A DNA stretch of 64,000 nt from a virus. Both the position numbers and the translations under genes were made by a program. The stretch lies in IMG/VR virus record IMGVR_UViG_3300025699_000004. The stretch is one strand, 5' to 3'. The notes beneath the pieces were generated by a model. It had not been told where the DNA came from. It saw only the letters and a list, made by a program, of their open reading frames with translations, and made no database searches. Positions 1 to 15,406 of the stretch are shown here, one piece after another (within the stretch, counting starts at the first letter, position 1; each line of letters begins with the position of its first letter).

Positions 1-555
1 ACGAGTTTCATCATCGTAGTATTCGGTGTAGTGTTTGTGTTTTGTTTTGTTATTGTGTGGAAGTTGTTGTTGTGGAATTCCAATTTTGTCGCAGATTACG
101 TTGAAGTCTTGTTGGAGGTTTTCAAATTTGCCTATAAAGTCACAACATTTTGTAGATTCGTATTGAAACCCATGAGCCCATATATTCTCGTAGTTTTGAA
201 TATATTGTTTAAAGTTGATGTCCGTTAAATCTCTTTTTTTATTTGTAAATTTTTTTTTCTCAAAACAATACCAAGACACAACTCTGTCCCAAGGATTTCT
301 TACAAATGCAAATTTAAAATAATTGCTATATGAATTGAGGAAGTTTCCAGAACGTTTACAATCACTGTGTTTGTATTTGTGTGGTTCAGTCGCATCAACT
401 CCACTTTTGCAATTTAAGTTTGTGCTATCATCACCAACTAATTTTCCAACAATTAAATTATCATCTTCAATCTTTTCAAGTACACCGTGGATTGAAGTTG
501 TACCCGTTTTCTCTGGTGCAATAAATACGAATTTATATTTTGGTGATATAATCAT
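1..555 (-). CDS. Sulfotransferase family 2-like protein (C-terminus runs off window edge; absent from ORF track)
   Basis: Manual translation from ATG 555: MIISPKYKFVFIAPEKTGTTS...FAFVRNPWDRVVSWY...DFIGKFENLQQDF...HYTEYYDDETR, open to base 1. Confidence 0.85.
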   Translation of the reverse strand, partial: MIISPKYKFVFIAPEKTGTTSIHGVLEKIEDDNLIVGKLVGDDSTNLNCKSGVDATEPHKYKHSDCKRSGNFLNSYSNYFKFAFVRNPWDRVVSWYCFEKKKFTNKKRDLTDINFKQYIQNYENIWAHGFQYESTKCCDFIGKFENLQQDFNVICDKIGIPQQQLPHNNKTKHKHYTEYYDDETR

Positions 556-561
556 TGTAAA

Positions 562-1422
562 TTATCCTTTAAATTTTAAAATTTCTGTTAAACTATCTGC
601 GCTTGCAGGTAAATTGTGAGTTTTGCATAATTTAATCGCAGTGTTAAATCCACTTGATTTCCAGTTTTCCCCAGACAAATTATTAATTTTAAATAAGTTT
701 CTTGTTTTCTTATTCTCAGTTTCATAATTTGCATTTTGGATTGTATCTTGCATAAAATTCTCAAGTTTTTTATTTAAAGTATTTTCCCAGTAGTCTTCAT
801 CTAAACAATCTTCGTAAAAAATAGTCAAACAATTTTTATGATACTTTTTCAGTGTGTTATAGTAAACTTCTTTTTCCCAATCGCATCTGATTGCATCTGC
901 TACAATTAAATTGTAGTTTAAATCTAAGGCTTTATCGGTATTATTAATTTGATTCTTATAGTGTTTATTGTTATGATACACTCCTGTTGTTTTAGCAATT
1001 TGATTGCTTGTTGCTTGTGCAATTGAATCTTTACGAACAAAGTGAATTGCTGGATATTTTAAAATTGAATTTATGCTACATTGATCGTACATTATATTTA
1101 CAAATTCATTGTCATTCAGTGAGTCGTGTGCATCATCGTAAAATTGTTCAGTTTTTTGAATAATTTTATTTGTGTCAAATACTTCAAATGCTTCGAGAGT
1201 AGATAACTTTCTCAAATAACCTTTTTCTGTAATAAATCTTGGTTTAGGTAAATAATAAGAATTCAGTTTTTTTCTTTCAATGAATGTTTTGCTTGAAATT
1301 TCTTCCCACCAATTCACATTATTTTCTTTAGATACGCGCCAACGACCAAACATTCCTGCCAGCTTTTCACAAAACCAAGTTGTTCCACTTCTTTGTGACG
1401 ATACTATAAAGAATTTTCTCAT
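562..1422 (-). CDS. Stf0-like sulfotransferase
   Basis: N-terminal PAPS-binding loop SSQRSGTTW; FVRKDSIAQATS...A.TTGVYH resembles Stf0 family. Confidence 0.7.
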   Translation of the reverse strand: MRKFFIVSSQRSGTTWFCEKLAGMFGRWRVSKENNVNWWEEISSKTFIERKKLNSYYLPKPRFITEKGYLRKLSTLEAFEVFDTNKIIQKTEQFYDDAHDSLNDNEFVNIMYDQCSINSILKYPAIHFVRKDSIAQATSNQIAKTTGVYHNNKHYKNQINNTDKALDLNYNLIVADAIRCDWEKEVYYNTLKKYHKNCLTIFYEDCLDEDYWENTLNKKLENFMQDTIQNANYETENKKTRNLFKINNLSGENWKSSGFNTAIKLCKTHNLPASADSLTEILKFKG

Positions 1423-1427
1423 TTTAT

Positions 1428-2048
1428 TTACTCTCCAAATTTATACCCAAAATATTCAATGTCTCGTGCATATTTTTCCGCAACAATTTGTTTTGTTTCT
1501 TCATCATAGTATTCGGTGTAGTGTTTATGTTTTGTTTTGTTTTTATGTGGAAGTTTTTGTCGTGGAATTCCTATTTTGTCGCATACGGTGTTGAAGTCTT
1601 CTTGGAAGTTTTCAAATCTTCCGATGAAATCAACAAGTAGCTTTCCATTATCATCGTAAAGAAACTTGTACTGATGATCCCATTGTACATGGAGTTTTGC
1701 CACGATCAAGAGGTTTATATAATCATTAAATGATGCAGATTCAGTAATACCAATGTGATCCATTAAATCAGGTCGTTTAGTTATATTGTAATTGTACTGA
1801 GAAACCATTTTTTCCCAAGGGTTTCTTACAAACGAAAATGTAAAATACTCGGAAAATATATCTCCACCAACCTCTTCTATAATGTGTGATGACATTAAAT
1901 GTTGAAGTCCTCCTGTTTGATATTTATTTGGAGACATCCAAAGGTCTTTTGTAGTACGTTTTTTCGGTTTAAATAATAAATCTTCTACACTTGTTCCACC
2001 TGTTTTCGGAATATGAATAAAAATAAATTTATGTTTGTGATTTATCAT
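1428..2048 (-). CDS. Sulfotransferase family 2-like protein
   Basis: FIHIPKTGGTS (5'-PSB) and FVRNPWEKMVSQY (3'-PB) motifs. Confidence 0.85.
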   Translation of the reverse strand: MINHKHKFIFIHIPKTGGTSVEDLLFKPKKRTTKDLWMSPNKYQTGGLQHLMSSHIIEEVGGDIFSEYFTFSFVRNPWEKMVSQYNYNITKRPDLMDHIGITESASFNDYINLLIVAKLHVQWDHQYKFLYDDNGKLLVDFIGRFENFQEDFNTVCDKIGIPRQKLPHKNKTKHKHYTEYYDEETKQIVAEKYARDIEYFGYKFGE

Positions 2049-2051
2049 TGC

Positions 2052-2624
2052 TTATACTCCAAATTTATACCCAAAATATTCAATGTCTCGTGCATATTTT
2101 TCCGCAACGATTTGCTTTGTTTCTTCATCGTAGTATTCGGTGTAATGCGGGCCTTTAATTTGATGTTCATGCTTTAATTTACACTTAGGCATTCCAGTTG
2201 AATGACATATTTTGCGAAAATCCTCCTCAATACTCTCAAATCTCCCAATAAAATCAAAGCTCTTAAAATCACCAATCATTTGTGAATATGAAAATGCATG
2301 AGGCGCATCATCAGGGTCGAACTTTTTCAAGAACTCCTTAAAAGTCATTTTTCTATAAAATTTCTTTTCACGCTTTCTGGGCCAACGAAATTTTTTATTG
2401 GTATACCATTTATACTCGGAAACATATTTATCCCAGGGATTTCTAACAAAAGTAAACTTAAAGTATTGATTGAATTTTTCAGGCCCCAACCTTTTCTCCA
2501 TTCTTTTGGCTGGTAAATGGTGATGCCCAACCCTGAAACAGTAAGGTTTTATGCATTTCTCAATAGACGTGCCTCCTGTTTTAGGAATGTGTAAAAAAAT
2601 AAATTTATAAATATCGCTGATCAT
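2052..2624 (-). CDS. Sulfotransferase family 2-like protein
   Basis: FLHIPKTGGTS, FVRNPWDKYVSEY, FIGRFE motifs. Confidence 0.85.
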   Translation of the reverse strand: MISDIYKFIFLHIPKTGGTSIEKCIKPYCFRVGHHHLPAKRMEKRLGPEKFNQYFKFTFVRNPWDKYVSEYKWYTNKKFRWPRKREKKFYRKMTFKEFLKKFDPDDAPHAFSYSQMIGDFKSFDFIGRFESIEEDFRKICHSTGMPKCKLKHEHQIKGPHYTEYYDEETKQIVAEKYARDIEYFGYKFGV

Positions 2625-2626
2625 TT

Positions 2627-3280
2627 TTACTTAATTGAAAATAATTCTGAATGCTTTTCGTTCATAAAACTTAAAACCAACTCTTCGTCATATATATTAA
2701 AAACTCGATCAACCTCTTTGAGGCATTCGATATATTTTTCTTCAAATTCCTTAATGATTTCAACGGGTAGCCTTAGCGCCCCTGCTTTTAATTTTATTTT
2801 GGGAAACTTAGCTTCCAATAACCCTCCATATGGATTTCCTGGTATTGAATGATATTTCTTTATTACCATTTTTTTTTCTAGTCCACCGTTTAGAATTTCT
2901 CCGAAACCTCTATTAAAAACACAATCTCTCCACACTATATCTTTAACTAAAGAAAGATCACTAACCCTTTTGAAAAGAAGAATCTTGCTTGTCCATATAG
3001 TAGCTAGTTTAAGATACGAAGAACTCTTTATACGCAACCCGTATTTAGTATATACATAATCCATAGATTCGCAGTATTTTGTTAAATTTTTTAAATAAGG
3101 TTTGCTTGGCAAATCTTTAAAATTTAATTTAATATTATTACTAAAATCTATTTTTTCTTCTGAGAAAAAATTATCTATATTCAACTTCTTTGCGCCTCGA
3201 AGGTGCCTGCCATTAGTTGGCTTGACGTTACCTTCTACCTTCCAGTATCCAGAGAACGTGGCTCTATTTAATATACTCAT
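2627..3280 (-). CDS. Hypothetical protein, possibly HtrL/YibB-like glycosyltransferase-related
   Basis: IWTSKILLF...VWRDC loosely matches the SK...W.D.G pattern; inside glyco operon. Confidence 0.35.
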   Translation of the reverse strand: MSILNRATFSGYWKVEGNVKPTNGRHLRGAKKLNIDNFFSEEKIDFSNNIKLNFKDLPSKPYLKNLTKYCESMDYVYTKYGLRIKSSSYLKLATIWTSKILLFKRVSDLSLVKDIVWRDCVFNRGFGEILNGGLEKKMVIKKYHSIPGNPYGGLLEAKFPKIKLKAGALRLPVEIIKEFEEKYIECLKEVDRVFNIYDEELVLSFMNEKHSELFSIK

Positions 3281-4088
3281 TAATTATGTAGTTTTTTTTA
3301 TTCAGTTGCAGATTCTTTAATATTTTCGGATTGATGTTAAAAGTTTCGTAGTCTCGTGTGCCGTGCCCTGTATCGTTCTGCCTGTAATGGTTCAGACCTA
3401 ACTCTTCTATTTTAGGATTGAACCATTTTCCGTAAGGAGCAGTTTGCGCCTTATGAGGCTGTAGTTTTGTGGTTATTGATGGCTTGTAAATATATTTTCT
3501 AAATTTATCACCTTTTGAATGAAGCATTGATTTTGATATTTCTGTAATTAATTTATCAGGGTTTAGATCTCTAGACTCAAATCTAATCTGCCTCATCCTG
3601 ACCAGTCCTACTGTATCACTCAATCCAGACAAGTATTCCTTGATATCATTTTTTCGCCCTTGATCTATTACTAGAAATTCATCCATATCTAGACTCGCAC
3701 ACCAATCGACGCCTTTTCCTCTTAATCTTGCTGCACAATGTCCGTGAGCTCGAGCTTGAGCATATTCGACTTTACCGTGTCGGTCTAATGGAGACCATTC
3801 CACAAAATGAACTCCTGGATATTTGTCTGAAATATCTTTTAAAATTGAATCAATCTGTTTTTCATTTAAAGGAACCTCCTGTTTAAAATCCCACCCGTGC
3901 TTATTTACTCTTCCAGGCTTAATATATTCATTCTTCATCCTTATCTCCCAGAAGGGTTTCGTTTGTACTTTTGAATTATCATACAGATAAAATTCATCAA
4001 AACCTAATTGCGAATGATAATCTATCCATTCTTCCAGCCATAAGATATTCTCTTTGGCGATAAAAACATTATGCATTGCCGTTTTCAT
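3264..4088 (-). CDS. Glycosyltransferase, GT92/GT2-like
   Basis: LEEWIDYH..LGFDEFYLYDN and LDMDEF (DxD) motifs. Confidence 0.75.
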   Translation of the reverse strand: MKTAMHNVFIAKENILWLEEWIDYHSQLGFDEFYLYDNSKVQTKPFWEIRMKNEYIKPGRVNKHGWDFKQEVPLNEKQIDSILKDISDKYPGVHFVEWSPLDRHGKVEYAQARAHGHCAARLRGKGVDWCASLDMDEFLVIDQGRKNDIKEYLSGLSDTVGLVRMRQIRFESRDLNPDKLITEISKSMLHSKGDKFRKYIYKPSITTKLQPHKAQTAPYGKWFNPKIEELGLNHYRQNDTGHGTRDYETFNINPKILKNLQLNKKNYIINEYIK

Positions 4089-4564
4089 TAATCTTCCTCC
4101 TGATTTACGGAAAGGGAAAATTGTTCTTCCTCTTCCTTAGATACTTTTTTCTTACTTTCAACTTTATGTATTCTCTTTCTAAGCCCAGTACTTGAAAAGT
4201 CGTGGTCTCTTGAATTATAATATATTTCTATGCTCTTTTTCAAACATATATCTTTTCCAGAAAAATCTACATCTTTGTAATCAGATCCTATAATTCTAAT
4301 GTTCACGTCGTAACACAATAAAATATCATGCAAATCTTTTTCTAAATTATATGGTATAATTTCGTCTACATATTTAACAGCAGAAAGCTGTATATAGCGC
4401 TCAACAATACTTTGAACTGGAGCATTTTTTTGAGGTCTTTCCACTTGCGGGTCAACATGCAGACCGCATACTAAATAGTCGCATTTACTTTTAGCTTCTT
4501 TTAGCATTGAAATGTGCCCAGAATGCAAAAGGTCAAAGGTTGAAAATGTTATTCCTGTTTTCAT
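4088..4564 (-). CDS. tagD: Glycerol-3-phosphate cytidylyltransferase-like (TagD family)
   Basis: TFDLLHSGH HxGH motif, ER...L.AVKYVDE, FSSTGLR. Confidence 0.8.
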   Translation of the reverse strand: MKTGITFSTFDLLHSGHISMLKEAKSKCDYLVCGLHVDPQVERPQKNAPVQSIVERYIQLSAVKYVDEIIPYNLEKDLHDILLCYDVNIRIIGSDYKDVDFSGKDICLKKSIEIYYNSRDHDFSSTGLRKRIHKVESKKKVSKEEEEQFSLSVNQEED

Positions 4565-4565
4565 G

Positions 4566-4799
4566 TTATACTATATTTTCTCCTAGGTTATTTTTAAATA
4601 ATTCCGAATCGTTCCATTTAGATTTCATCCTCATTTCGCTAATAATTTCGCAAATTATAAGTTTTTTTTCTTCGTCTAAAGTCTTAAATTTTTTCTTTGC
4701 AATTATGTATGCAGCAGAAACCTTTGAGTTGGTCGAGTCCTCTAAGTTTAACATCGCCTGAACTGTTAAAAAATCAATAATCTCGTTATCTGTACACAT
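4566..4799 (-). CDS. Hypothetical protein
   Basis: Tiles tightly in operon. Confidence 0.6.
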   Translation of the reverse strand: MCTDNEIIDFLTVQAMLNLEDSTNSKVSAAYIIAKKKFKTLDEEKKLIICEIISEMRMKSKWNDSELFKNNLGENIV

Positions 4800-4801
4800 T
4801 T

Positions 4802-5179
4802 TTAATACCCCATGTCTTCGTAATCATCCCAGTAAACAGAGCCCAATCCACAATCTCTTAACAAATTAACTCCAATGGCTCTATCTCCCCTTTTGCCTGG
4901 ATCCATATCGTTAATTAAAACTCTAGGTCCTCTTTCGATTTCCATGATTAATCTGCTATAAGGAAGGTCGTACATAGACAATTCTTTCTCGGTGTGCTCT
5001 CTTAAATACTCAGGCCTTGCTGTTGTCAGTATTACCATATGACCGTTACTTGACCAGCAGTCTAATTTTTCTTTTACTCCGTCCAGAAGTTCTGGTGTTG
5101 AAGTCTCATAAGTTTCGAACTTTCTATATTTAAATAAAGTTCCATCTATATCGCAAAATATTGTATTTTTCTTTTCCAT
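4802..5179 (-). CDS. HAD-superfamily phosphatase (EcbF/BcbF or PNKP-phosphatase-like)
   Basis: IFCDIDGTL motif I; ILTTARP motif II. Confidence 0.75.
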   Translation of the reverse strand: MEKKNTIFCDIDGTLFKYRKFETYETSTPELLDGVKEKLDCWSSNGHMVILTTARPEYLREHTEKELSMYDLPYSRLIMEIERGPRVLINDMDPGKRGDRAIGVNLLRDCGLGSVYWDDYEDMGY

Positions 5180-5228
5180 TTTAATTATTGGGTTGTTAGT
5201 GTTTGTCTCATTATTCCTTCTGTTATGC

Positions 5229-6437
5229 TCATTTTAATTTCATCTGTTCTTGAAATCTGGAATCCCAGTCTATTTCTTCTGGCGAGCTAAAATCTAAGAG
5301 AGAAAATACATAAAGTGCTAAAGCTGAAACAACGAAAACCCCTAAAACTACCCATGCTACATTTTTCCTTAGCCAACTCTCTGGCTTTTCTGGTTTAGGC
5401 TCTTCTGGTTTAGGCTCTTCTGGCAAGGGTTCTTCTGGTGTGGGCTCTTCGGGCTCAGGGTCTGGATAGGGATGTGGTATATCGGGCTCAGGTTTTTTTT
5501 CTTCTGGAAATTCTTCTTTCAGGAGTTTCTCTATATCTACAACTCCATGACCCCAGTTTTTATCTTTCCCCTTTTCCCCTTTGTCCGATGTATATCTTAA
5601 CAAATGACCTCTTATTTCTTCTACTGTCTTGCAATCATTAAGGCCTGTTTCTTTTTCTTTTTGTTTGTGCTTTGAAAGCATTAAAGCTATGATTCCAACT
5701 AAATACGGGCAAGCCATTGAAGTTCCGCTTAAAGATGCATATGCATTGTTTAAGAAGGTACTGAATATTCTATGTCCAGGAGCGGCCCAATCAACCTCTT
5801 TACCTCTAGATGAAAAATCTGCAATTTCCCCGTTCTTATCAAAAGCCGCCACCGATATTGTTTCTGGGTACGCAGCTGGATAACTAACTCCAGCGTGTCC
5901 AGAATTACCAGCCGAACAAACTATGGGTATGTTTTTCTCATAAGCTTTTATGACTGCTTCCTCTATATCTTTACTGGGCCTACTTGCCCCCAAAGACATC
6001 GAAATTATGTCTGGCTTAAAATCTATAGCCATTAATATGGCTTTAGCTACATTAGAGGAGCTACCAGAGCCGTTTCTATTAAGTGCTTTTATACAAATGC
6101 ACCTCGACTCTGGAGCTACCCCAACATATCCCTGATTATTGTCTTTTGCGCAAATAATGCCCACGCAATGAGTTTGGTGCCCGTTTAAATCTTCAATACC
6201 TTCTCCTGACACGAGATTGACTCCAGCAATCGCGTTATCTCCGATATCGTTATGATTGGGCTTACCTGTATCAATTACAACTATACTTATTCCCTTGCCT
6301 TTCGATATTTTCCAAGATTCTGGAATATTGCAATATTTCATCCCCCAGTCTAAAGACTGAGAGAGGGTCGCTGTCATTTCGTTAACTTGATAATTTGGTA
6401 TTGATACTTCTTCTTTTTCGCTTTTTTGTTTTGGCAT
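5229..6437 (-). CDS. Subtilisin-like S8 serine protease with Pro/Glu linker and C-terminal TM helix
   Basis: IDTG, NGHQTHCVGII, SAGN, GTSMACP catalytic motifs; PEEPKP repeats; hydrophobic VAWVVLGVFVVSALALYVF. Confidence 0.9.
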   Translation of the reverse strand: MPKQKSEKEEVSIPNYQVNEMTATLSQSLDWGMKYCNIPESWKISKGKGISIVVIDTGKPNHNDIGDNAIAGVNLVSGEGIEDLNGHQTHCVGIICAKDNNQGYVGVAPESRCICIKALNRNGSGSSSNVAKAILMAIDFKPDIISMSLGASRPSKDIEEAVIKAYEKNIPIVCSAGNSGHAGVSYPAAYPETISVAAFDKNGEIADFSSRGKEVDWAAPGHRIFSTFLNNAYASLSGTSMACPYLVGIIALMLSKHKQKEKETGLNDCKTVEEIRGHLLRYTSDKGEKGKDKNWGHGVVDIEKLLKEEFPEEKKPEPDIPHPYPDPEPEEPTPEEPLPEEPKPEEPKPEKPESWLRKNVAWVVLGVFVVSALALYVFSLLDFSSPEEIDWDSRFQEQMKLK

Positions 6438-6457
6438 TTTATTTTCGCAATTTTTTT

Positions 6458-7285
6458 TTACTCAGGCCTCTTCCCTAAAGGTTTTCCATCCTGACCTATT
6501 TCGCCCGCTCGTATTTTAGTAGCTGATACAGCTTGCAATTCCTTACTTAGCTCAAGTTGTTCGATATTATATCCAACTCCTCTGCCATAAAAAACGTCCA
6601 TTATGTTTGGAACTTCTATGATTTTCACTTTATCTCCGAAATCAACGCATGCAGCCATAATTTCAGCCTTGACTTTCTCAAAGCTGTAAGGGTTGCTGTC
6701 GTCCATTCCTCCTACATCTCTAAGAGCTATGCAGCACTGACCAGTTCTTTTAATTGCTTCTGCAACTAAAGTTTTATGGCCAACATGAAAAGGTTGATAT
6801 CTGCCTATTAGTAATGCGGTTGGAGCTTGGTTGTCCCATTTTTCCGTGGCATAAATATTCTCTAATGCAGTTTCGCACCATTCTTGAGGAGTGCCTTCGT
6901 TTAATATCAAATCCCTATCGTCCCACCTTTCATCTTTGGTCGGATCCTCAAAAATAGCATTCGTATCAGCATATCTACCTTCTTCGATTCTATTGACCCA
7001 AATTACATAATCGGGATTAAAAAGCTTTCTAGCATCTTCCGTGGGGCAACAAAAATCAGATACAACATATCCACCTCCTAGTGCGGACCAATCAGCCAGC
7101 TTGCCCATTCTCCTGGAATGCTCGTTTCTATCTTCTTCGGTAAACCCTAAGTCTTTATGAATTTCCTGTCTAACAGCATCAGCGTTAAACCAGACAGCGT
7201 TCAATTTAGGAACTAATAGTTCTGCCAGAGTAGTTTTACCAGACCCTGGAAGCCCCATTATTAATATTTTCCTTTTAGTTTTCAT
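6458..7285 (-). CDS. cysC: Adenylylsulfate kinase-like domain fused to HxGH nucleotidyltransferase domain
   Basis: GLPGSGKTT P-loop, NADAVR...DLGF..EDR.EH.RR; C-terminal GRYQPFHVGH and VSATKIR. Confidence 0.8.
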   Translation of the reverse strand: MKTKRKILIMGLPGSGKTTLAELLVPKLNAVWFNADAVRQEIHKDLGFTEEDRNEHSRRMGKLADWSALGGGYVVSDFCCPTEDARKLFNPDYVIWVNRIEEGRYADTNAIFEDPTKDERWDDRDLILNEGTPQEWCETALENIYATEKWDNQAPTALLIGRYQPFHVGHKTLVAEAIKRTGQCCIALRDVGGMDDSNPYSFEKVKAEIMAACVDFGDKVKIIEVPNIMDVFYGRGVGYNIEQLELSKELQAVSATKIRAGEIGQDGKPLGKRPE

Positions 7286-7397
7286 TTGTTTTTTTTATTT
7301 CCCTTTTTATTTTGTTATATTTTATCGGTTTATAATAGTATTCAATTACACCATAATATAGTGCAGCGAGAATGCCTATTATAATCAATCCGTCCAC
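7275..7397 (-). CDS. Small membrane protein (40 aa, below track cutoff)
   Basis: GTG start, MDGLIIIGILAALYYGVIEYYYKP...; overlaps cysC start by 11 nt; GTGTAA motif 8 nt upstream. Confidence 0.5.
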   Translation of the reverse strand: MDGLIIIGILAALYYGVIEYYYKPIKYNKIKREIKKTNEN

Positions 7398-7411
7398 ACT
7401 TACTATTACAC
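7398..7411 (-). promoter_or_regulatory. Class II promoter motif GTGTAA-N8-start heading the sulfation operon
   Basis: Same motif and spacing (N8-10) recur at six other gene starts. Confidence 0.55.
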
Positions 7412-7484
7412 TTTTTTTGAGTTTGTGAAAAAAAAATTTCCCATTTTATTTTTTTTCCTGTAGGGCCCCTGTATGAAATTTTTT

Positions 7485-7512
7485 TTGACTTTTAATCGCC
7501 ATGCGTTATAAT
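7485..7512 (+). promoter_or_regulatory. sigma70-type promoter for tRNA-Thr
   Basis: TTGACT-16-TATAAT, 7 nt before tRNA G1. Confidence 0.8.
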
Positions 7513-7519
7513 TACATAA

Positions 7520-7595
7520 GCCACCTTAGCTCAGTAGGTAGAGCACCTCACTTGTAATGAGGATGTCGTCGGTTCGACCCCGACAGGTGGCTCCA
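7520..7595 (+). tRNA. trnT: tRNA-Thr (UGU), CCA encoded
   Basis: Cloverleaf GCCACCT...AGGTGGC, TTCGA T-loop, anticodon TGT. Confidence 0.95.
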
Positions 7596-7600
7596 TTTAT

Positions 7601-7792
7601 ATGAAAAAACTTTATTTAATTTGGGCAAGGACTTTAGATCATCGAGTTGGTAAAAATGACGAAGATCAACCTGACGTGCCTATACTAACATTAAAAGAAG
7701 CGAGGTATAGCCTGCTAATAAGAAGTGCAATAGTAGTTCTTAATGTGGTCACATGCTTATTTATAATAGCTAATGCAATAAGACATTGGTAA
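7601..7792 (+). CDS. Small membrane protein
   Basis: ATG 6 nt after tRNA; C-terminal hydrophobic helix. Confidence 0.65.
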   Translation: MKKLYLIWARTLDHRVGKNDEDQPDVPILTLKEARYSLLIRSAIVVLNVVTCLFIIANAIRHW

Positions 7793-7819
7793 TGGCTGAA
7801 AACAAGAAAAAAATAATAC

Positions 7820-7848
7820 TTGACTTGATAACTTGAAAATGTTATAAT
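7820..7848 (+). promoter_or_regulatory. sigma70-type leaderless promoter
   Basis: TTGACT-17-TATAAT-6-ATG(7855). Confidence 0.8.
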
Positions 7849-7854
7849 GCATAA

Positions 7855-7995
7855 ATGATTATAAAATTAAAAATTATAATTTGCCTCGTGTTTCTCGGAG
7901 GATGCGCATATTCTTCAAATTCAACTTGTATTAAGGATCATTCCTGTCCCGTCTCTAAGGATCATGGCCCCTGCCCTTTTTGTGAAACAAAATGA
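7855..7995 (+). CDS. Small Cys/His-rich putative lipoprotein (46 aa, below track cutoff)
   Basis: MIIKLKIIICLVFLGGCAYSSNSTCIKDHSCPVSKDHGPCPFCETK; LGGC lipobox; ATGA overlap with next gene. Confidence 0.65.
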   Translation: MIIKLKIIICLVFLGGCAYSSNSTCIKDHSCPVSKDHGPCPFCETK

Positions 7996-8552
7996 AGAAG
8001 AAAAGAGAGTTGCAGATAGGTGATTATGTCAAGGAGACTTCTTTTGTTAGAGCGGGGCGAAGAAGAGTTGGTGAAATAGTTTCTATACGGACTGACAGCA
8101 AGTCGGACCCCATTATAGAATGTATAGAATTGTGTCCAAAAGAGCTTATCCCCTTAGAGATGGGTTTTGGTCAAATGAAGAATTTTACAAGTAAAAGAAG
8201 TAAGCTAAAACACTATATACCAAGAAAAAGTATTTTCATTAAAGAAACTTTTGAAATAGGAAAGTATGTTTCTTGCAAATCAGGAACTAATCTTAAATAT
8301 GGTAGAATATCAGCTTATAGAAATCAAGAAGAAGGGCTTTATCCTAACTCTTATAACAAAGGGGAGTATAACGGACATGACCTACTTGAGTGCATCGAAA
8401 TAAACCCGAAGGCAGGGTTGCACAGAGTTGTAAGTGATGACGGATCTCCTAAAATTTTTATTGGATATCCTGAAAGGTGCAAATTAGTAAAAGTTATAGA
8501 TACGGATCAGAACGGCAAGCCAAACTTATCACCTAAATTAGATATATCATAA
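7992..8552 (+). CDS. Hypothetical protein with internal two-fold repeat
   Basis: IGDYVK...GEIVSIR...IECIELCP and IGKYVS...GRISAYR...LECIEINP. Confidence 0.7.
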   Translation: MKKKRELQIGDYVKETSFVRAGRRRVGEIVSIRTDSKSDPIIECIELCPKELIPLEMGFGQMKNFTSKRSKLKHYIPRKSIFIKETFEIGKYVSCKSGTNLKYGRISAYRNQEEGLYPNSYNKGEYNGHDLLECIEINPKAGLHRVVSDDGSPKIFIGYPERCKLVKVIDTDQNGKPNLSPKLDIS

Positions 8553-8553
8553 A

Positions 8554-9123
8554 ATGATATCTCATTCTCATAAATTTATATTTATTCATATAAATCGCAC
8601 GGGAGGAACTAGTGTCGAGCATGCCTTATCCGCATTTGGGGGAGTTAATAAATGGGAGGATTTTAATAGGCATGATGGAGCGGGAAAAATTTCAGAAAAA
8701 CCTGAGTGGAATGATTATTTTAAATTTTCTATAGTTCGCAATCCGTGGGATAAAGAATTTTCAGACTATAAATGGCACAAAAAATTAAAACACAAAAAAG
8801 TCTCAGAATATTCAACATTTAAAGATTATCTTCTGCTCCCCGAACAAACAAAGGGCAAGGGTTTATTTAGGTGGCATTCTAATCAATATGACTGGCTTAT
8901 TTCTAAAAACGGAAAATTAGAAGTTGATTTTGTGGCTAGATTCGAAAATTTACAAGAAGATTTTTATAAAATTTGCCAAAATATAAATATAGATCCAATA
9001 AGTTTACCTCATAAAAATAAAACTAAAAAGTTAGATTATAGACAGTTCTATACAGATGAAACTTATAGTTGGGTAAAAGCAAACTACAAAAAAGACATCG
9101 ATCACTTCAATTATAAATTTTAG
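8554..9123 (+). CDS. Sulfotransferase family 2-like protein
   Basis: FIHINRTGGTS, IVRNPWDKEFSDY, FVARFENLQEDF. Confidence 0.85.
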   Translation: MISHSHKFIFIHINRTGGTSVEHALSAFGGVNKWEDFNRHDGAGKISEKPEWNDYFKFSIVRNPWDKEFSDYKWHKKLKHKKVSEYSTFKDYLLLPEQTKGKGLFRWHSNQYDWLISKNGKLEVDFVARFENLQEDFYKICQNINIDPISLPHKNKTKKLDYRQFYTDETYSWVKANYKKDIDHFNYKF

Positions 9124-9199
9124 CGAGAGTAGCTCAGTTGGATAGAGCATCTGCCTTCTAAGCAGAATGTCGTGAGTTCGAGTCTCACCTCTCGTGCCA
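9123..9199 (+). tRNA. trnR: tRNA-Arg (UCU), CCA encoded
   Basis: Cloverleaf GCGAGAG...CTCTCGT, anticodon TCT; G1 is last base of upstream TAG. Confidence 0.95.
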
Positions 9200-9205
9200 T
9201 ATATC

Positions 9206-11248
9206 ATGAAAAGAAAAAGTAAATTACAAACAAATAAACCAAAAGGGTTCTTTAAGTTTCGAGACCCTCATCCTAATCTTGAGGGTTATGAGTTCAGCTC
9301 TTATACAAATAACCCCCCTTACTTTACTGAAAATTGGGTGAAGACCAGTTCTCTTCCTTGTAAAAAGAAAGTTAATTTACAAACTGGTAGCGAGCGAGGT
9401 TTTTATAAGTATAGGGACCCTCACCCAAAAATCGAAGGCAGATTGTTTTATGGCTATCAACCTAAGAAAAATAAAAAAGGCACATATGGTGAAATTTGGC
9501 AACCCAAGGATAAATTTGGTAAAGTACAAATAGTTTCTCAAACTGGCCTACCTATAGGCACTTTTAGTCGTGGCGATCCGCACCCTTCGATGGATGGCCT
9601 TTTCTTTTTTAATTACGACAAGCGCAAACATTTACCCAGAGGTAAAGGGCGCGAAACATGGAGGCCTTATCCCCCCAAAAGACCTTTCCCAAAGAAATAC
9701 CCTAAATGGACGAAAGAAACGGTATTAGAGCATTACTCACAATTATGTAAGGAAAATGGAGATGTTGCGTTTTCACTCTCGAACCATAAATATTTAAATA
9801 AACCATTGAGAGAGTTTTTTGGAAGCAAGGAAAATCTAGATAAAGAGCTCGGATATAAACCCTTAGTGGTTAATTGGACAAAGGAAAGCTTTGCAAAAGC
9901 CTATCTTGATAAATGTAAAGAAAATGGAGATAAACCATGGAAAATTCCAAGGGGGCATGCGTGGAAAGGTATGGTTCGAAAACACTTTGGAAGTATACAC
10001 GACTTAGAAAAACATGTCGGTTATGAACCAACTCAATTACGCTTAAGCAGGGAAGAGTGGATAGAGGAATATAGTAAAGTCTGCAAGGCTAATGGAGATC
10101 AAGCCCTTGGAAACTTAATGCTAAAATCTCTGGGCAGAGGTGAAATTTTAGGTGCATTCTCTAGATTTAATATCAGCAAAACGAAAGTAGATAAAGATTT
10201 AGGTTATAAGAATTTCCATACCTATCGAACGCCCGAAGAGACTTTTGAGGAATATAAAAATCTTTGCTTGAAGCATGGTGACAAGTCGTTAACAGTCACA
10301 GAAATGGAAATCTTAGGAAAATCAGATCTAAAAGGTGCGATCACGAGGCATTTTGGCAAAAAAACAAAATTAGACATAGAACTTGGATATTGCCCATGTA
10401 ATCTCTATAAACTATCTGATGGCTCTATTGTTAGCAGTGTTCTTGAAGTTATATTTGGAAATTTTTGTTTACATAATAATGTACCTTTTAAAACAAATGA
10501 AATAATTGACGAAAAAGCGAGTCGAAAATTTGAATATGACTTTTTAGTTCAGGATACCCATGGACAAGATTGTTATGTAGAGATATGGGGCTATGATCTA
10601 AAGAGGGACAACCCTCCTTCTGTTCAGCAAGCTTATCGAGAAAAAAGGTTAATTAAAACTGAATTTTATAAAGAAAGAGGATTGAAACTAATTGACATAG
10701 ATCCTGATATATTTCACGCAGTAAATTCAAAAAGAATACAGAATTCTCTTAAAGAGATGTTTATAAACCATTCTATAAAAATAAATAATTTTAAAAAAAT
10801 AGAGTCGGAAGATTTGATTAAATCAAAAAATAACAAGGTGTGGGATAAAAATAAAGTTAAAGAAAAATATCATTCAATTTGCTTGAAAAATGGTGATAAA
10901 TCAGTAAGCACGATTAAACTTAACGAGATGGGGGAAAAAGGTTTGGTTACTGCTATATTTCTCCACTTTGGAAAAAAGGGGAAAACCAAGCTAGATGCAG
11001 AATTAGGTTATGAAAATATTCTTACATACTGGACAAAAGAATCTTCTGCAAAAGAATTTTTAAAACTTTGCCACTTAAACGGCAATAAGCCTGTGTCAAA
11101 AAGAAAGCTGGAAAAAATGGGCAAAGGTGCATTATCTGGTGCAATTGATAAGCATTGGAGGTACAGGGGTGATTTGTATGCCTATTTAGGATACACTCGT
11201 GACTGCCTTAGGCTTCGCTCAAGAAAAAAATATAATAGAAAAAATTAA
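9206..11248 (+). CDS. Repeat-rich putative homing endonuclease (PD-(D/E)XK-like core)
   Basis: 3x DPHP repeats, 6x ~58-aa W.KE..C..NGD..FG..LD.ELGY repeats, central YDFLV...YVEIWG...K..FY; ATG 9206 preferred over GTG inside tRNA. Confidence 0.6.
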   Translation: MKRKSKLQTNKPKGFFKFRDPHPNLEGYEFSSYTNNPPYFTENWVKTSSLPCKKKVNLQTGSERGFYKYRDPHPKIEGRLFYGYQPKKNKKGTYGEIWQPKDKFGKVQIVSQTGLPIGTFSRGDPHPSMDGLFFFNYDKRKHLPRGKGRETWRPYPPKRPFPKKYPKWTKETVLEHYSQLCKENGDVAFSLSNHKYLNKPLREFFGSKENLDKELGYKPLVVNWTKESFAKAYLDKCKENGDKPWKIPRGHAWKGMVRKHFGSIHDLEKHVGYEPTQLRLSREEWIEEYSKVCKANGDQALGNLMLKSLGRGEILGAFSRFNISKTKVDKDLGYKNFHTYRTPEETFEEYKNLCLKHGDKSLTVTEMEILGKSDLKGAITRHFGKKTKLDIELGYCPCNLYKLSDGSIVSSVLEVIFGNFCLHNNVPFKTNEIIDEKASRKFEYDFLVQDTHGQDCYVEIWGYDLKRDNPPSVQQAYREKRLIKTEFYKERGLKLIDIDPDIFHAVNSKRIQNSLKEMFINHSIKINNFKKIESEDLIKSKNNKVWDKNKVKEKYHSICLKNGDKSVSTIKLNEMGEKGLVTAIFLHFGKKGKTKLDAELGYENILTYWTKESSAKEFLKLCHLNGNKPVSKRKLEKMGKGALSGAIDKHWRYRGDLYAYLGYTRDCLRLRSRKKYNRKN

Positions 11249-12189
11249 TCAATATAATTCTCTTTAAAATAATCGGCATGGTATAATTTTCGTACTTTAT
11301 TCCAATCTACATTTTTAAAATTTTCTTCGTATTTTTTTTCTAATAAATCCTGGGTTACATCTTGCCATTTATCCACAATTAAGAATGGCAAGCCATAGGA
11401 AGATAAATCATGATATACTGGATGATTAGTTACCACGGGAATAATTCCCATTAAATGTGATTCTTGCAGTTTTGGAGTTTGTATCCCCGCTCCTAAAGGG
11501 CACAGAAAATATTTATAGTTAGATATTGTATTGTAATATTCTGTTGGTTTACAGTTTATTAAATCAACCACGTTTTGTTTTTTTAAAAAATTTAATAAAT
11601 CGCGCCTATCTTTTATAGATTTACTTAATTTTGGCCATTTACTGCCAAAGCCACTTACTGCTAATTTTTCTTTTGGGTTGTTTGGTTCATTTATATGTTT
11701 CAGTGTATTTTGCGCTCCATTTCTTATTAAATATGCATGTATGCATCCCATTGGTAAAGCTTTAACATAACTACAATTTATATCCTTAGCTTCGTAATAT
11801 ATTTCCTCAAAATTTTCTTTTAGTTTTTCGATCCATTTAATTTTTCCTGTTAAATTGAAATCGTCCCCAAAAACAAAAAGTTTTTTATATTTTTTTGTGA
11901 TTTTTTCTAGCAATAGCTCTAGACAATCAGGATTACATAAAACATTTCCTTTTAAATTTTTATTAAATTTAATTCCTGTTTTGTCAATTATTATTTCAAA
12001 TAAATTGTAGAATTGCGGGCGAGTTTCTAAAAGCTGGGATTTTTCTGATACGGCGCCTTCGGCTGTTATAAAATCTTGCCCCCATGCACTAGATTTTTTG
12101 TATTTTTTGGGATTGTACCTGTATCCAATTACATCATGGATCTTATCGAACTGAATGTAATTTTTTAATATTTCTTTTTCTTCTTCCAT
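11245..12189 (-). CDS. Exostosin-like (GT47) glycosyltransferase
   Basis: YKYFLCPLGAGIQTPKLQESHLMGIIPVV matches exostosin F.LCP.G.G....R..E.L..G.IPV; start moved to MEEEK. Confidence 0.7.
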   Translation of the reverse strand: MEEEKEILKNYIQFDKIHDVIGYRYNPKKYKKSSAWGQDFITAEGAVSEKSQLLETRPQFYNLFEIIIDKTGIKFNKNLKGNVLCNPDCLELLLEKITKKYKKLFVFGDDFNLTGKIKWIEKLKENFEEIYYEAKDINCSYVKALPMGCIHAYLIRNGAQNTLKHINEPNNPKEKLAVSGFGSKWPKLSKSIKDRRDLLNFLKKQNVVDLINCKPTEYYNTISNYKYFLCPLGAGIQTPKLQESHLMGIIPVVTNHPVYHDLSSYGLPFLIVDKWQDVTQDLLEKKYEENFKNVDWNKVRKLYHADYFKENYID

Positions 12190-12854
12190 GAGGATTCTGC
12201 GACTGGCACACATTTCCCATCCTTTTCTTCGTATCCTTTTTTGCAATTTGGCGGATAACCTGCGTCTTCTTCAGCTTCAGCTTTCTTCTTGGGTTTTTGA
12301 GCTTGCTTTATTTGTTTTTGTGTCGGAGCTCCCTTGTCTCCCTTTTTTCTCATTTTTTCGCCAGAGCCATTTTTTATTCTCTTCCTTTTTTTGTGGATAT
12401 TATCCCAAAGCCCTTGCCTAGCGGCGGTTTCATCTATTTCATCTAAAATGATTTCTTCTATTTCTTTATCGTTTAATTCAATTTCCGAACCTTGTACTTT
12501 AGTTCCAGCTCGCCATTGCTTGCAAGACCAGTATCTAGCTTTATATTTTGGACCTGGATTATCGCAATTATGTCTAGCTCTAAATGATTTTCTTCTTGCT
12601 GGATCGTCTCTTTTAATTTCCATGTTTGGATCTCCGAAGTTTACTTTCACAACATTGCCTTTATCGTTTTTTACATAAACTGAAAATTTCTTCGGTCCTC
12701 CCGAAGTCCTAAAAGGTTTGTTGAGTTTTTTTCCTTCGTTTTTTTCTTTTGCCCAAATTCTTGTGGGAATAAATTCTTCGACTCCTTCTTCGCAGTCACA
12801 AAGAACCTTGCTTGCTTTGATTTTATCACTAAAGTCAATTTCTATTTTCTTCAT
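12165..12854 (-). CDS. Basic hypothetical protein with recurrent phage ORFan motifs
   Basis: VKVNFGDPNMEIKRDDPARRKSFRARHNC...ARYWSCKQW and GLWDNIHKKRKRIKNGSGEKMRK. Confidence 0.75.
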   Translation of the reverse strand: MKKIEIDFSDKIKASKVLCDCEEGVEEFIPTRIWAKEKNEGKKLNKPFRTSGGPKKFSVYVKNDKGNVVKVNFGDPNMEIKRDDPARRKSFRARHNCDNPGPKYKARYWSCKQWRAGTKVQGSEIELNDKEIEEIILDEIDETAARQGLWDNIHKKRKRIKNGSGEKMRKKGDKGAPTQKQIKQAQKPKKKAEAEEDAGYPPNCKKGYEEKDGKCVPVAESSWKKKKKY

Positions 12855-12868
12855 GTATGATTTTACAC
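12855..12868 (-). promoter_or_regulatory. Class II promoter motif GTGTAA-N8-ATG
   Basis: GTGTAAAATCATAC ATG. Confidence 0.55.
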
Positions 12869-13210
12869 ATAATTAAATTTTTTTCCACTATAAATCGCGC
12901 GTTCTAATCTTTTCTCTTTTTTTCTTTTTTTGCACACACACACAACTAATATTATTTTTTATTATTTTTTATTATTTTTTTTAATTTCCTTTTTTGGAAA
13001 ATAGTGTCGGGTATTTTTTTACTTTTTATTATAGCTTTTTTCTTTCTTTTTTTGTCTCGTTTTCAAAAACCCCGTACCCCCCCGTATTTATTTTATTATA
13101 TTATAATTAATAATTTTGTTTCAATATTGAAGAAAGGGCCCTACGGGCAATCTGAGAAAGTTGGATCGGTCAATTTTTCTAGTTAATGGGGTAGGGTTAT
13201 GTCTAGGCAT

Positions 13211-14464: not shown

Positions 14465-15406
14465 TCATATCGCTAATACTTGAGTTATAGCATTGCGAAC
14501 CTTAGTAGGAAAGGCGCTATCAGCTAATGAGCGAAAGCGATTTTCTTCTCTAGAGGTTTGCTTGGTTTCTCTAGTGATTCGATCATGAGTTTGATAAGCG
14601 GTGAAAGCATTGAATGCGTCCCATGCGGTTTCACCAAATGCACCAAGGCGCTCGTTAGAGAATTGAGCCTTAGTCGCTTCCCTTGCGGTTTCAGCTTGCT
14701 TGCTTTCGCCCTTGAAAACGATTTCATTGATAAGATCGAATTCGCTTGGAGTCACTTCCCTAAGTGACAAGTCAGTGACGTCAGCGGTTAGATTGTGAAT
14801 GATTTGCCTAACTCCCGTTGCCTGCTCTAGAGCGGTTGCCATGATCGCCCTTTGATTGCGAGTATGCTTCACCTTAGCGATGCGAGTGCCCTTGTCCCAT
14901 GCCGCCATGCCATTGTCGCACCATACTCTAAGGATTTCGATTTGAATGATAGTAGCAAGCGAGCCGTCAAAGCTTGTTCTTGCGGTGACTCTAATCTCTA
15001 GAATATCGCCCTTTTTCCTATCGCCCTTGCTAGGCACTTCGATAGTCATATCCATTTTACCGCTGATATAAAGCTGACGCCCTTGGTGAGTAAAGCCCGC
15101 TGTATCATATTCGAAACCTAACTCTTCTTTTAAAGCATCTAAGAATGCGAATGCTTCAGTAGGTTGGAGCAAGTCATAAGTAGATGAAACGATAGTTAAA
15201 GGCTCGCCACGATCATCTTTGATTAGTTTAAAACCATTGCAAACGTGGTTAAGTGATTCAGTTGAATAATCGCCAACGTCTAACTTAGTCAATACGTCAT
15301 TAACGTTCTCGCTATCGCTTACGTCTTCAATGTTGAATGATCTTGGTGACAGGCGATTGATGCATTCAGCTATGCTTGGCGGTGTTGAATTTAAGAAGTA
15401 ACTCAT
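14465..15406 (-). CDS. DUF932/DUF945-family protein
   Basis: Y.LLQP.EAF, SFDGS...RVWCDNG, K.KHT, GETAWDAFNAFTAY..H. Confidence 0.8.
   Translation of the reverse strand: MSYFLNSTPPSIAECINRLSPRSFNIEDVSDSENVNDVLTKLDVGDYSTESLNHVCNGFKLIKDDRGEPLTIVSSTYDLLQPTEAFAFLDALKEELGFEYDTAGFTHQGRQLYISGKMDMTIEVPSKGDRKKGDILEIRVTARTSFDGSLATIIQIEILRVWCDNGMAAWDKGTRIAKVKHTRNQRAIMATALEQATGVRQIIHNLTADVTDLSLREVTPSEFDLINEIVFKGESKQAETAREATKAQFSNERLGAFGETAWDAFNAFTAYQTHDRITRETKQTSREENRFRSLADSAFPTKVRNAITQVLAI

Follow-up and report, generated by a model that had tools for sequence, protein, structure and literature searches.

The first 12.2 kb of a 64,000-nucleotide stretch of viral DNA (IMG/VR record IMGVR_UViG_3300025699_000004; the whole stretch is referred to here as the window) raise the question of what a phage makes with five sulfotransferase genes set among glycosyltransferase genes and a gene resembling adenosine 5′-phosphosulfate (APS) kinases, and on which acceptor. 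We read this island as a phage-encoded cytoplasmic module that builds and sulfates a glycan, with virion proteins as the likeliest acceptor, and assign this reading a probability of about 50%. Judged by its gene content, the window belongs to a large tailed phage: it encodes rIIA (E 1.6e-91), rIIB (E 2.9e-63), a clamp loader, sigma factors and three tRNAs, and IMG/VR contains many relatives of 150–222 kb, so that the phage-like sequence described around the island in an initial annotation is borne out. Isolated phages are all distant, with a best rIIA identity of ~35%; the Moraphages (PMC12619734) were considered as the identity of the clade and not adopted, as nothing ties that lineage to the contig. 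The island consists of two gene groups, which diverge from a short spacer that carries tRNA genes. The minus-strand group comprises 11 co-directional open reading frames (ORFs), running from 7285 down to the window start with gaps of at most 49 nt and several overlaps, and its leading gene (6458–7285, minus strand) encodes an APS-kinase-like domain fused to a nucleotidyltransferase.

All five sulfotransferase genes of the initial annotation lie where it had placed them, and their profile matches and motifs agree. Four belong to the Sulfotransfer_2 family (PF03567) and score 49–69 bits against a Pfam cut-off of 22: paralogue a (1–555, minus strand, its C-terminus lying beyond the window start; E 1.2e-14, with PEKTGTTS and RNPWDRVVS), paralogue b (1428–2048, minus; E 9.9e-19, and phrog_3347 with E 4.6e-33), paralogue c (2052–2624, minus; E 8.2e-17) and paralogue d (8554–9123, plus; E 8.6e-13). 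The fifth (562–1422, minus) is Stf0/NodH-like and carries QRSGTT and RKD...Q..S motifs; its PF09037 match (E 8.7e-5; 22.6 bits against a cut-off of 22) is marginal alone, while the same family is found in 6 of its 28 homologues, and four of these homologues are named ‘LPS (lipopolysaccharide) sulfotransferase NodH’ by JGI. A PDB sequence search with this protein returned no match at E ≤ 10, and one with paralogue b gave nothing useful. The four window Sulfotransfer_2 proteins were aligned with twelve from other viral contigs. In these 16 sequences the 5′-phosphosulfate loop (5′-PSB) is kept as PKTGGTS, with PEKTGTTS and, in paralogue d, NRTGGTS as window variants; the 3′-phosphate motif (3′-PB) R-N-P...S is invariant, and a His column (H50), a candidate for the catalytic base, is at least 90% conserved, but within a gappy region. 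The profile search that had been proposed earlier as a check for intact sites for 3′-phosphoadenosine 5′-phosphosulfate (PAPS) agrees with this picture, as the 5′-PSB and 3′-PB motifs are kept in all five sulfotransferases. On the other hand, the central third of the Sulfotransfer_2 paralogues is unalignable. Since the paralogues share the donor site but differ centrally, they probably sulfate different positions or sugars; in sequence terms, a conserved donor site beside a divergent centre is the pattern expected of one donor and different acceptors. The proteins of paralogues b and c are 46% identical, yet the 96-nt 3′ ends of their genes (1428–1523 and 2052–2147) are 94% identical. Similarly, two stretches of neighbouring paralogues (5–142 and 1495–1632; 138 nt) share 86% identity, with proteins less than 50% identical. 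The C-terminal tail encoded by the shared 96-nt end is conserved across the clade, and the pattern suggests either gene conversion or recombination among the tandem copies, or a constrained shared function.

The sulfotransferase genes are accompanied by genes for glycan assembly. A GT92-family glycosyltransferase of the GT-A type is encoded at 3264–4088 on the minus strand (PF01697, E 2.2e-16; 60.6 bits against 23; DMDE motif). Next to it, the 217-residue product of 2627–3280 (minus) has no Pfam match; its structural neighbours in the Atlas are HtrL_YibB proteins (PF09612; PF09642-type) with TM-scores of 0.74–0.79, and among these neighbours the viral HtrL_YibB domains frequently share a protein with GT2, methyltransferase or Sulfotransfer_2 domains. 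We take the model-based identity of this putative glycan-modifying enzyme as a lead. Two further minus-strand genes may provide a building block. The first (4088–4564; PF01467, CTP_transf_like, E 1.2e-12; HSGH and SSTGLR motifs) encodes a cytidylyl- or adenylyltransferase of the TagD/RfaE-II type. It belongs to the superfamily (TIGR00125, 55.1 bits against 27.7), whereas its scores against TagD (TIGR01518, 66.4 bits against an equivalog cut-off of 165.4) and RfaE domain II (TIGR02199, 62 bits) are far under the cut-offs; the sequence thus allows a type-level assignment, according to which the product would activate an alditol- or sugar-phosphate. The second (4802–5179) encodes a small HAD-superfamily phosphatase with a DIDGT (DxDGT) motif, whose HAD match is weak (7.2e-5; Hydrolase_3, 23.1 bits against 20.9) and which also matches HAD_PNKP (E 1.2e-4) and phrog_1238, 415 and 505. 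Overall, the GT92-like, TagD-like, HAD phosphatase and APS-kinase fusion calls made initially are supported by profile matches.

The remaining glycosyltransferase gene (11245–12189, minus; a start at ATG 12189 is more likely than one at TTG 12246) had been called GT47/exostosin-like. This call does not hold: the PF03016 (exostosin) match scores 18.4 bits (E 1.4e-3) against a cut-off of 33.4, and the family is present in only 2 of 48 homologues. Instead, a profile built from 30 homologues matches A075L of chlorovirus PBCV-1 (PDB 8Q8I/8AVQ/8ASA) with E 6e-17 over a region that spans the PxGNGI(D/Q)T..(R/K)..ES segment, in which the window protein has GAG in place of the family GNG and the Arg of A075L is aligned to an invariant Lys. 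The fold agrees. The AlphaFold2 model (pLDDT 85) finds 8ASA in Foldseek with E 6e-11 and TM-scores of 0.57/0.63, A075L being its only strong structural match and human EXT1/2 following far behind. The gene product is therefore an A075L-like GT-B glycosyltransferase (CAZy GT114, formerly GT47/exostosin) by profile and fold, although it shares only ~17–19% identity with A075L and the acceptor domain is not conserved in sequence. A075L is a cytosolic β-xylosyltransferase that builds the core of the N-glycan carried by the chlorovirus capsid protein, and it founds GT114 (PMC11571054). The analogy with glycosaminoglycan synthesis drawn in the initial annotation is consequently weak, as the presumed exostosin resembles a single-sugar transferase and not an EXT polymerase.

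Sulfation could also concern acceptors other than glycans, i.e., metabolites, lipids or proteins (for instance Ser, Thr or Tyr residues of phage or host), the glycosyltransferases then being unrelated neighbours. Sulfotransferase counts in the relatives range from 1 to 10 and do not follow the glycosyltransferases, and the islands are mosaic and shift their genome positions; both would fit such a role. However, the sulfotransferase genes are interleaved and translationally coupled with glycosyltransferase genes both in the window and in a relative, G001, the known characterised Sulfotransfer_2 members are carbohydrate sulfotransferases, and giant viruses possess HtrL_YibB::Sulfotransfer_2 fusions. 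We consider non-glycan sulfation improbable and return to the glycan as acceptor. The core of what had been proposed stands as a gene cluster: sulfotransferases of the PAPS type, glycosyltransferases and an APS-kinase-like enzyme are clustered, and this association is conserved in a marine phage clade.

Where the PAPS would come from depends on the fusion protein encoded at the head of the operon. It carries an APS-kinase-like domain (residues 1–150; PF01583, E 2e-12) followed by a nucleotidyltransferase domain with an HxGH motif resembling nicotinamide mononucleotide adenylyltransferase (NMNAT; residues 156–275; NF003786, E 2.5e-9). The first 150 residues match APS kinases in Pfam, NCBIfam and PDB sequence searches; the PF01583 match spans only positions 5–90 of 152. 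The P-loop (GLPGSGKT) and the APS-binding motif R..LGF..DR.E are kept, and R39, F48 and R53 align with R66, F75 and R80 of the P. chrysogenum APS kinase. In Foldseek all top ranks are APS kinases; these fold searches used the whole-protein model, and their match lists were filled by the kinase domain. By VIA comparison the kinase domain reaches Z scores of 17–18.5 with APS kinases (at Z 18.5, root mean square deviation 2.1 Å over 140 residues), against 16 with gluconate kinases, 12 with shikimate kinases and 10.6 with nicotinamide riboside kinase. On the other hand, the catalytic/Mg loop DGDN is replaced by N-A-D-A, the first Asp being absent and the Asn being invariant in 16 homologues, and D87A or D89A abolishes the APS kinase activity of human PAPSS1 (PMC8528679). 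Because of this NADA loop, and of a score against TIGR00455 (CysC) of 43.8 bits, well under the equivalog cut-off of 138.7, we call the domain APS-kinase-like and not CysC.

The C-terminal domain, of ~115 residues, is nearly invariant across relatives. It contains GRYQPFHVGH and SATKIR, and its NadM-type NMN adenylyltransferase match (NF003786) covers residues 158–237; PF01747 (ATP sulfurylase) has no match on the fusion protein or in five complete relatives. The pairing of an APS-kinase domain with a nucleotidyltransferase of the HxxH/HxGH superfamily recalls the PAPS synthases (PAPSS1/2, PDB 1X6V; Aquifex Sat-APS kinase, PDB 2GKS), with which the kinase fold also matches, and the kinase-then-transferase order is that of metazoan PAPSS. 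Unlike these enzymes, the fusion has a short NMNAT-like C-domain that neither matches PF01747 nor is joined by a PUA-like domain, besides the aberrant kinase loop. The same architecture (phrog_10255) is shared by phages of Xylella, Xanthomonas and Stenotrophomonas, by 4,236 metagenomic protein clusters and, at ~50% identity, by many Alphaproteobacteria (Bradyrhizobium, Chelatococcus, Enterovirga), among which several show no match to Sat, CysD or CysH; in 80 alphaproteobacterial loci no neighbouring gene is common to more than nine. The phages of these three bacterial genera include 56-kb siphophages, in which the fusion is found without sulfotransferases. In a census of 16 cellular genomes carrying the fusion, Sat was found in none and CysD exceeded its cut-off in only 6, while 4 had no protein of the PAPS_reduct family. 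One of these four encodes two strong sulfotransferases; in another, an Enterovirga isolate, the fusion is followed after 19 nt by a gene that weakly resembles Sulfotransfer_3.

We propose that the fusion supplies PAPS. Since no ATP sulfurylase of a known type was found in five complete relatives, the APS must come either from the host or from a putative activity of the fused domain. The census is compatible with a self-sufficient PAPS synthase, which it fits and does not prove as far as gene content goes; this notion is weakened by the uncertain completeness of the metagenome-assembled genomes and by the NADA loop, as well as by the case of Xylella phage Salvo, where the fusion occurs and none of four sulfotransferase Pfam families does. 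In its boldest form the proposal would have soluble phage enzymes build a sulfated heteroglycan coat on the virion with PAPS from a compact synthase whose NMNAT-like domain performs the sulfurylase step, and with CysQ closing the cycle; sulfotransferase-bearing bacteria that have no Sat or CysDN would then rely on this mini-synthase as their missing enzyme for sulfate activation. We hold this full version to be unlikely. Alternatively, the fusion could have nothing to do with sulfate and activate another compound, as HldE and NadR do, leaving the sulfotransferases to host PAPS only. The non-canonical loop (PMC8528679), a C-domain nearest to NMNAT, the Salvo-like phages and two complete relatives that bear sulfotransferases without the fusion all point that way. 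Against it, the APS-binding Arg, Phe and Arg are retained, the fold is far nearer to APS kinase than to nicotinamide riboside kinase, the fusion leads a sulfotransferase operon, and the census combines a complete absence of Sat with four genomes devoid of PAPS_reduct, two of which hold sulfotransferase or sulfotransferase-like genes. We regard a role unrelated to sulfate as rather unlikely, and provision of PAPS is retained as our proposal.

Related phages give further indications. As near-complete relatives we considered 13 genomes with a CheckV completeness of at least 90%, retrieved through a sulfotransferase, the fusion or rIIA. Whichever query had found them, all 13 contain Sulfotransfer_2 matches (1–10 each), and 11 contain the fusion. 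Seven relatives of varying completeness (G001 and six others) encode an Inositol_P/CysQ-like protein. In G001, whose locus is the one annotated, the CysQ-type gene (TIGR01331; 228.7 bits, cut-off 228.8) shares an operon with eight sulfotransferase matches, two GT25 genes, a GT2, a gene for a methyltransferase and one for an RmlD-like reductase. PAPS-dependent sulfotransfer leaves 3′-phosphoadenosine 5′-phosphate (PAP) as an inhibitory by-product, which CysQ clears. That relatives have recruited CysQ, as seen in gene content, is the best indirect evidence that the sulfotransferases are active and use PAPS. The same genome has, head to head with the fusion, a gene for a DUF1501 protein (L179:2110-3390; E 1.7e-111), which we take to belong to the sulfatase/alkaline-phosphatase superfamily; next to enzymes of sulfation such a partner would be surprising. 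The synteny proposed earlier as a check is found in part: sulfotransferases and fusion recur in related phages, and the island is rearranged and differs in position. For instance, the relative G012, whose fusion is 89% identical, shares the core genes and has a rearranged island. As island content and position differ even where core genes are shared, the islands can be called hyperplastic.

The near-complete pathway envisaged in the initial annotation is not supported by this comparison. Apart from the altered kinase loop, a Sat or a PAPS_reduct/CysD-family gene is absent from all five complete relatives tested; none of nine relatives at least 90% complete encodes a priming transferase (Bac_transf PF02397, Glycos_transf_4 PF00953) or a Wzx flippase (PF01943), and neither function is found among the island ORFs of the window. 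No island enzyme has a membrane segment, hydrophobic segments being confined to a subtilase and two tiny ORFs. As the enzymes are all soluble, the chemistry would be cytoplasmic; and as no gene for lipid-carrier priming or export was found in the relatives, while a capsid protein is what the nearest glycosyltransferase of solved structure modifies, virion proteins would be the likeliest acceptor. As a set, the enzymes (GT92, GT114 and HtrL-like here, GT25 and GT2 in relatives) look like those of giant viruses, whose capsids and fibrils are glycosylated, an analogy that favours the virion; together with the precedent of mycobacteriophages, it would make virion proteins the most economical acceptor.

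From the gene identities, motifs, folds, operon layout and clade-wide conservation we infer PAPS production, a glycan as acceptor and the virion as target, and the following sequence of events may be envisaged. The soluble GT92, the A075L-like GT114 and the HtrL/YibB-like enzyme would extend a glycan, for which the TagD/RfaE-type nucleotidyltransferase and the HAD phosphatase would supply one activated building block. The five soluble PAPS-dependent sulfotransferases would then sulfate it at different positions or on different sugars, while the fusion would boost the PAPS supply during infection and, in related phages, CysQ would remove the inhibitory PAP and complete the cycle. As a result, the phage's own virion proteins would gain a negatively charged, sulfated glycan coat. 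A sulfated virion glycan is the reading we favour, at slightly less than even odds.

To the points raised above on the kinase loop, on Salvo and on the origin of APS, which count against this reading, several others have to be added. The 64-kb window contains neither structural genes nor CysQ, and the five complete relatives examined do not make up for the missing sulfurylase. Moreover, a sigma-70-like, host-type promoter (7820–7848; TTGACT-17-TATAAT with TG) lies upstream of a 186-residue ORF (7992–8552, plus) that is translationally coupled to sulfotransferase d, as expected of early rather than late genes. The main rival is remodelling of the host envelope, in which the soluble enzymes would act on host-primed, lipid-linked intermediates of LPS, capsule or exopolysaccharide that the host then exports. 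The consequences would be receptor masking, superinfection exclusion or altered adhesion to particles during infection. Besides the promoter ahead of one sulfotransferase, it can be argued that enzymes of the Stf0/NodH-like, GT25, HtrL/YibB and RmlD-like kinds are characteristic of loci for LPS and capsule, that some Alphaproteobacteria have the fusion beside DegT/GFO/MurJ or PMT_2/NTP_transferase envelope genes, and that phage priming and export genes would also be missing where the host supplies these functions. However, lytic T4-like phages are not known to spend ~20 genes on serotype conversion, the known seroconverting phage enzymes (Gtr, Oac) are membrane-bound whereas all enzymes here are soluble, and the substrate of the nearest solved glycosyltransferase is a capsid protein. 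Envelope remodelling is a serious alternative, though in our view an unlikely one.

A third acceptor would be the phage DNA, with sugars, possibly sulfated, attached to modified bases to evade restriction. Ralstonia phage phiRSL1 clusters an APS kinase, three glycosyltransferases, NDP-sugar enzymes and a sulfotransferase with a thymidylate-synthase-family gene, and phage glycosyltransferases hypermodify DNA with glycans according to Pyle et al. (2024), as cited in PMC12619734. The clade studied here offers little to match this, as no hydroxymethylase of the thymidylate-synthase family is found in nine complete relatives; GT92, GT114 and HtrL are not among the families known for DNA glycosylation, and ten sulfotransferase paralogues are hard to square with a nucleobase acceptor. 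DNA hypermodification is therefore very improbable, and the virion is kept as the preferred target.

How does the proposed module compare with known systems? In bacteria, sulfation cassettes such as NodPQ with NodH, RaxPQ with RaxST, and mycobacterial CysDNC with Stf0 likewise place a PAPS-making enzyme beside its sulfotransferase, and one of the window sulfotransferases is itself Stf0/NodH-like. Unlike the island, these cassettes are cellular, contain a CysD/CysN-type ATP sulfurylase, which was not found here, and have one sulfotransferase each. Among isolated phages, homologous Sulfotransfer_2 and/or kinase genes occur in Ralstonia phiRSL1 (ORF232/238) and Stenotrophomonas DLP_6 (phrog_3347, phrog_10255), in phiRSL1 clustered with glycosyltransferase genes; the isolated phages differ by having one sulfotransferase per genome, and sulfotransferase matches occur in only five records among 50,697 phage genomes. 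A parallel in mechanism is the glycosylation of Vp54 of PBCV-1, in which soluble cytoplasmic viral enzymes assemble a virion-protein glycan without host ER/Golgi (endoplasmic reticulum and Golgi) or lipid-carrier export and to which the gene at 11245–12189 provides a sequence and fold relative of A075L. PBCV-1 is, however, a eukaryotic algal virus, and sulfotransferase or PAPS genes are not reported for its glycans. In Megavirinae, the clusters for fibril glycosylation include sulfate-metabolism genes (Moumouvirus australiensis, Cotonvirus, Tupanvirus SAT/APS kinase; PMC9614988). There, as here, clade-specific glycosyltransferases and sugar-nucleotide enzymes accompany sulfate-activation genes and sulfated virion glycans are predicted (PMC9614988), the product being a prediction in both cases. 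These are giant viruses of amoebae with canonical SAT/APS kinase, whereas the phage clade has no canonical sulfurylase and up to ten sulfotransferase paralogues. Finally, mycobacteriophages also glycosylate their virions (Freeman et al. 2023, as cited in PMC12619734). Here sugars are added to capsid and tail-tube proteins within the cytoplasm of the bacterium by phage-encoded glycosyltransferases; one or two of these enzymes act, in an actinobacterial host and with no known sulfation.

Several genes within the span 1–12,854, which had been flagged as a whole, show no link to glycan synthesis, namely the ORFs 7992–8552, 9194–11248 and 12165–12854. The first of these was assigned no family by the Atlas search. 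Within the operon, the subtilase gene (5229–6437, minus) and a 77-residue ORF (4566–4799, minus; no family match in Pfam or phage-family profiles) have no recognisable glycan role. The subtilase (Peptidase_S8, E 8.9e-46) is mycosin-like, its match to the type VII secretion mycosin TIGR03921 (E 2.2e-55) lying under the cut-off. It has a Pro/Glu-rich linker and a C-terminal membrane anchor (hydrophobic segment at residues 363–381), with no obvious signal peptide, and adjoins the HAD gene also in relatives L002 and L014. In the spacer region, a second near-consensus sigma-70 promoter (7485–7512) precedes a tRNA-Thr gene, a 63-residue ORF with a membrane segment lies at 7601–7792 (plus), and an ORF of ~45 residues starting at 7855 has a lipoprotein-like signal (MIIKLKIIICLVFLGGC). 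Two copies of GTGTAAT, a candidate late-promoter motif, lie upstream of the operon; they carry little weight, given that the motif is not enriched in the window (11 found against 7.2 expected). The 684-residue protein of 9194–11248 (plus), directly after tRNA-Arg, has three ‘DPHP’ repeats, at least four repeats of ~56 residues (‘NGD...LGY’) and a central EYDFLV...YVEIWGY segment; it has no match in the PDB, the phage database or any related locus, and its gene may be a mobile insertion. Just beyond the island, a DUF932 protein is encoded at 14465–15406 (minus; E 4.8e-33). At the island's edge, contigs from four of four sequencing runs join 12174 to 12871, with CC between, at ~10 times the island depth, and commoner relatives seem to have no more than a small part of the ORF 12165–12854.

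The island itself is widespread. At least 98% of its sampled 31-mers are found in assemblies of marine metagenomes, drawn from no fewer than seven studies (2014–2022), and about half or more occur in two metatranscriptome libraries of one study. The contigs contain identical pieces across the island; those of the RNA libraries have depths like those of the DNA runs, so that they do not demonstrate transcription, a further point on the debit side of our reading. The source phage is an abundant, marine, uncultured phage of a cosmopolitan clade.

Chloroviruses, mimiviruses and a few mycobacteriophages are known to encode the glycosylation of their own virions. In our literature search phage sulfotransferases appeared only as entries in gene lists, and a demonstrated sulfation of a phage product was not found. 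What would be new here is the addition of sulfation, on a large scale, to the known glycan decoration encoded by viruses. The sulfotransferases are a hallmark of the clade, present in every near-complete genome with up to ten matches each. Should the fusion prove to be a self-sufficient PAPS synthase, it would represent a new enzyme solution to sulfate activation, useful for in-vitro sulfation chemistry. If the virion does carry a polyanionic, fucoidan- or glycosaminoglycan-like coat, this could affect the adhesion of abundant ocean phages to particles, to mucus and to cells that are not their hosts, as well as their protease resistance and decay, and its synthesis would add a virus-driven drain on the sulfate and ATP of infected cells.

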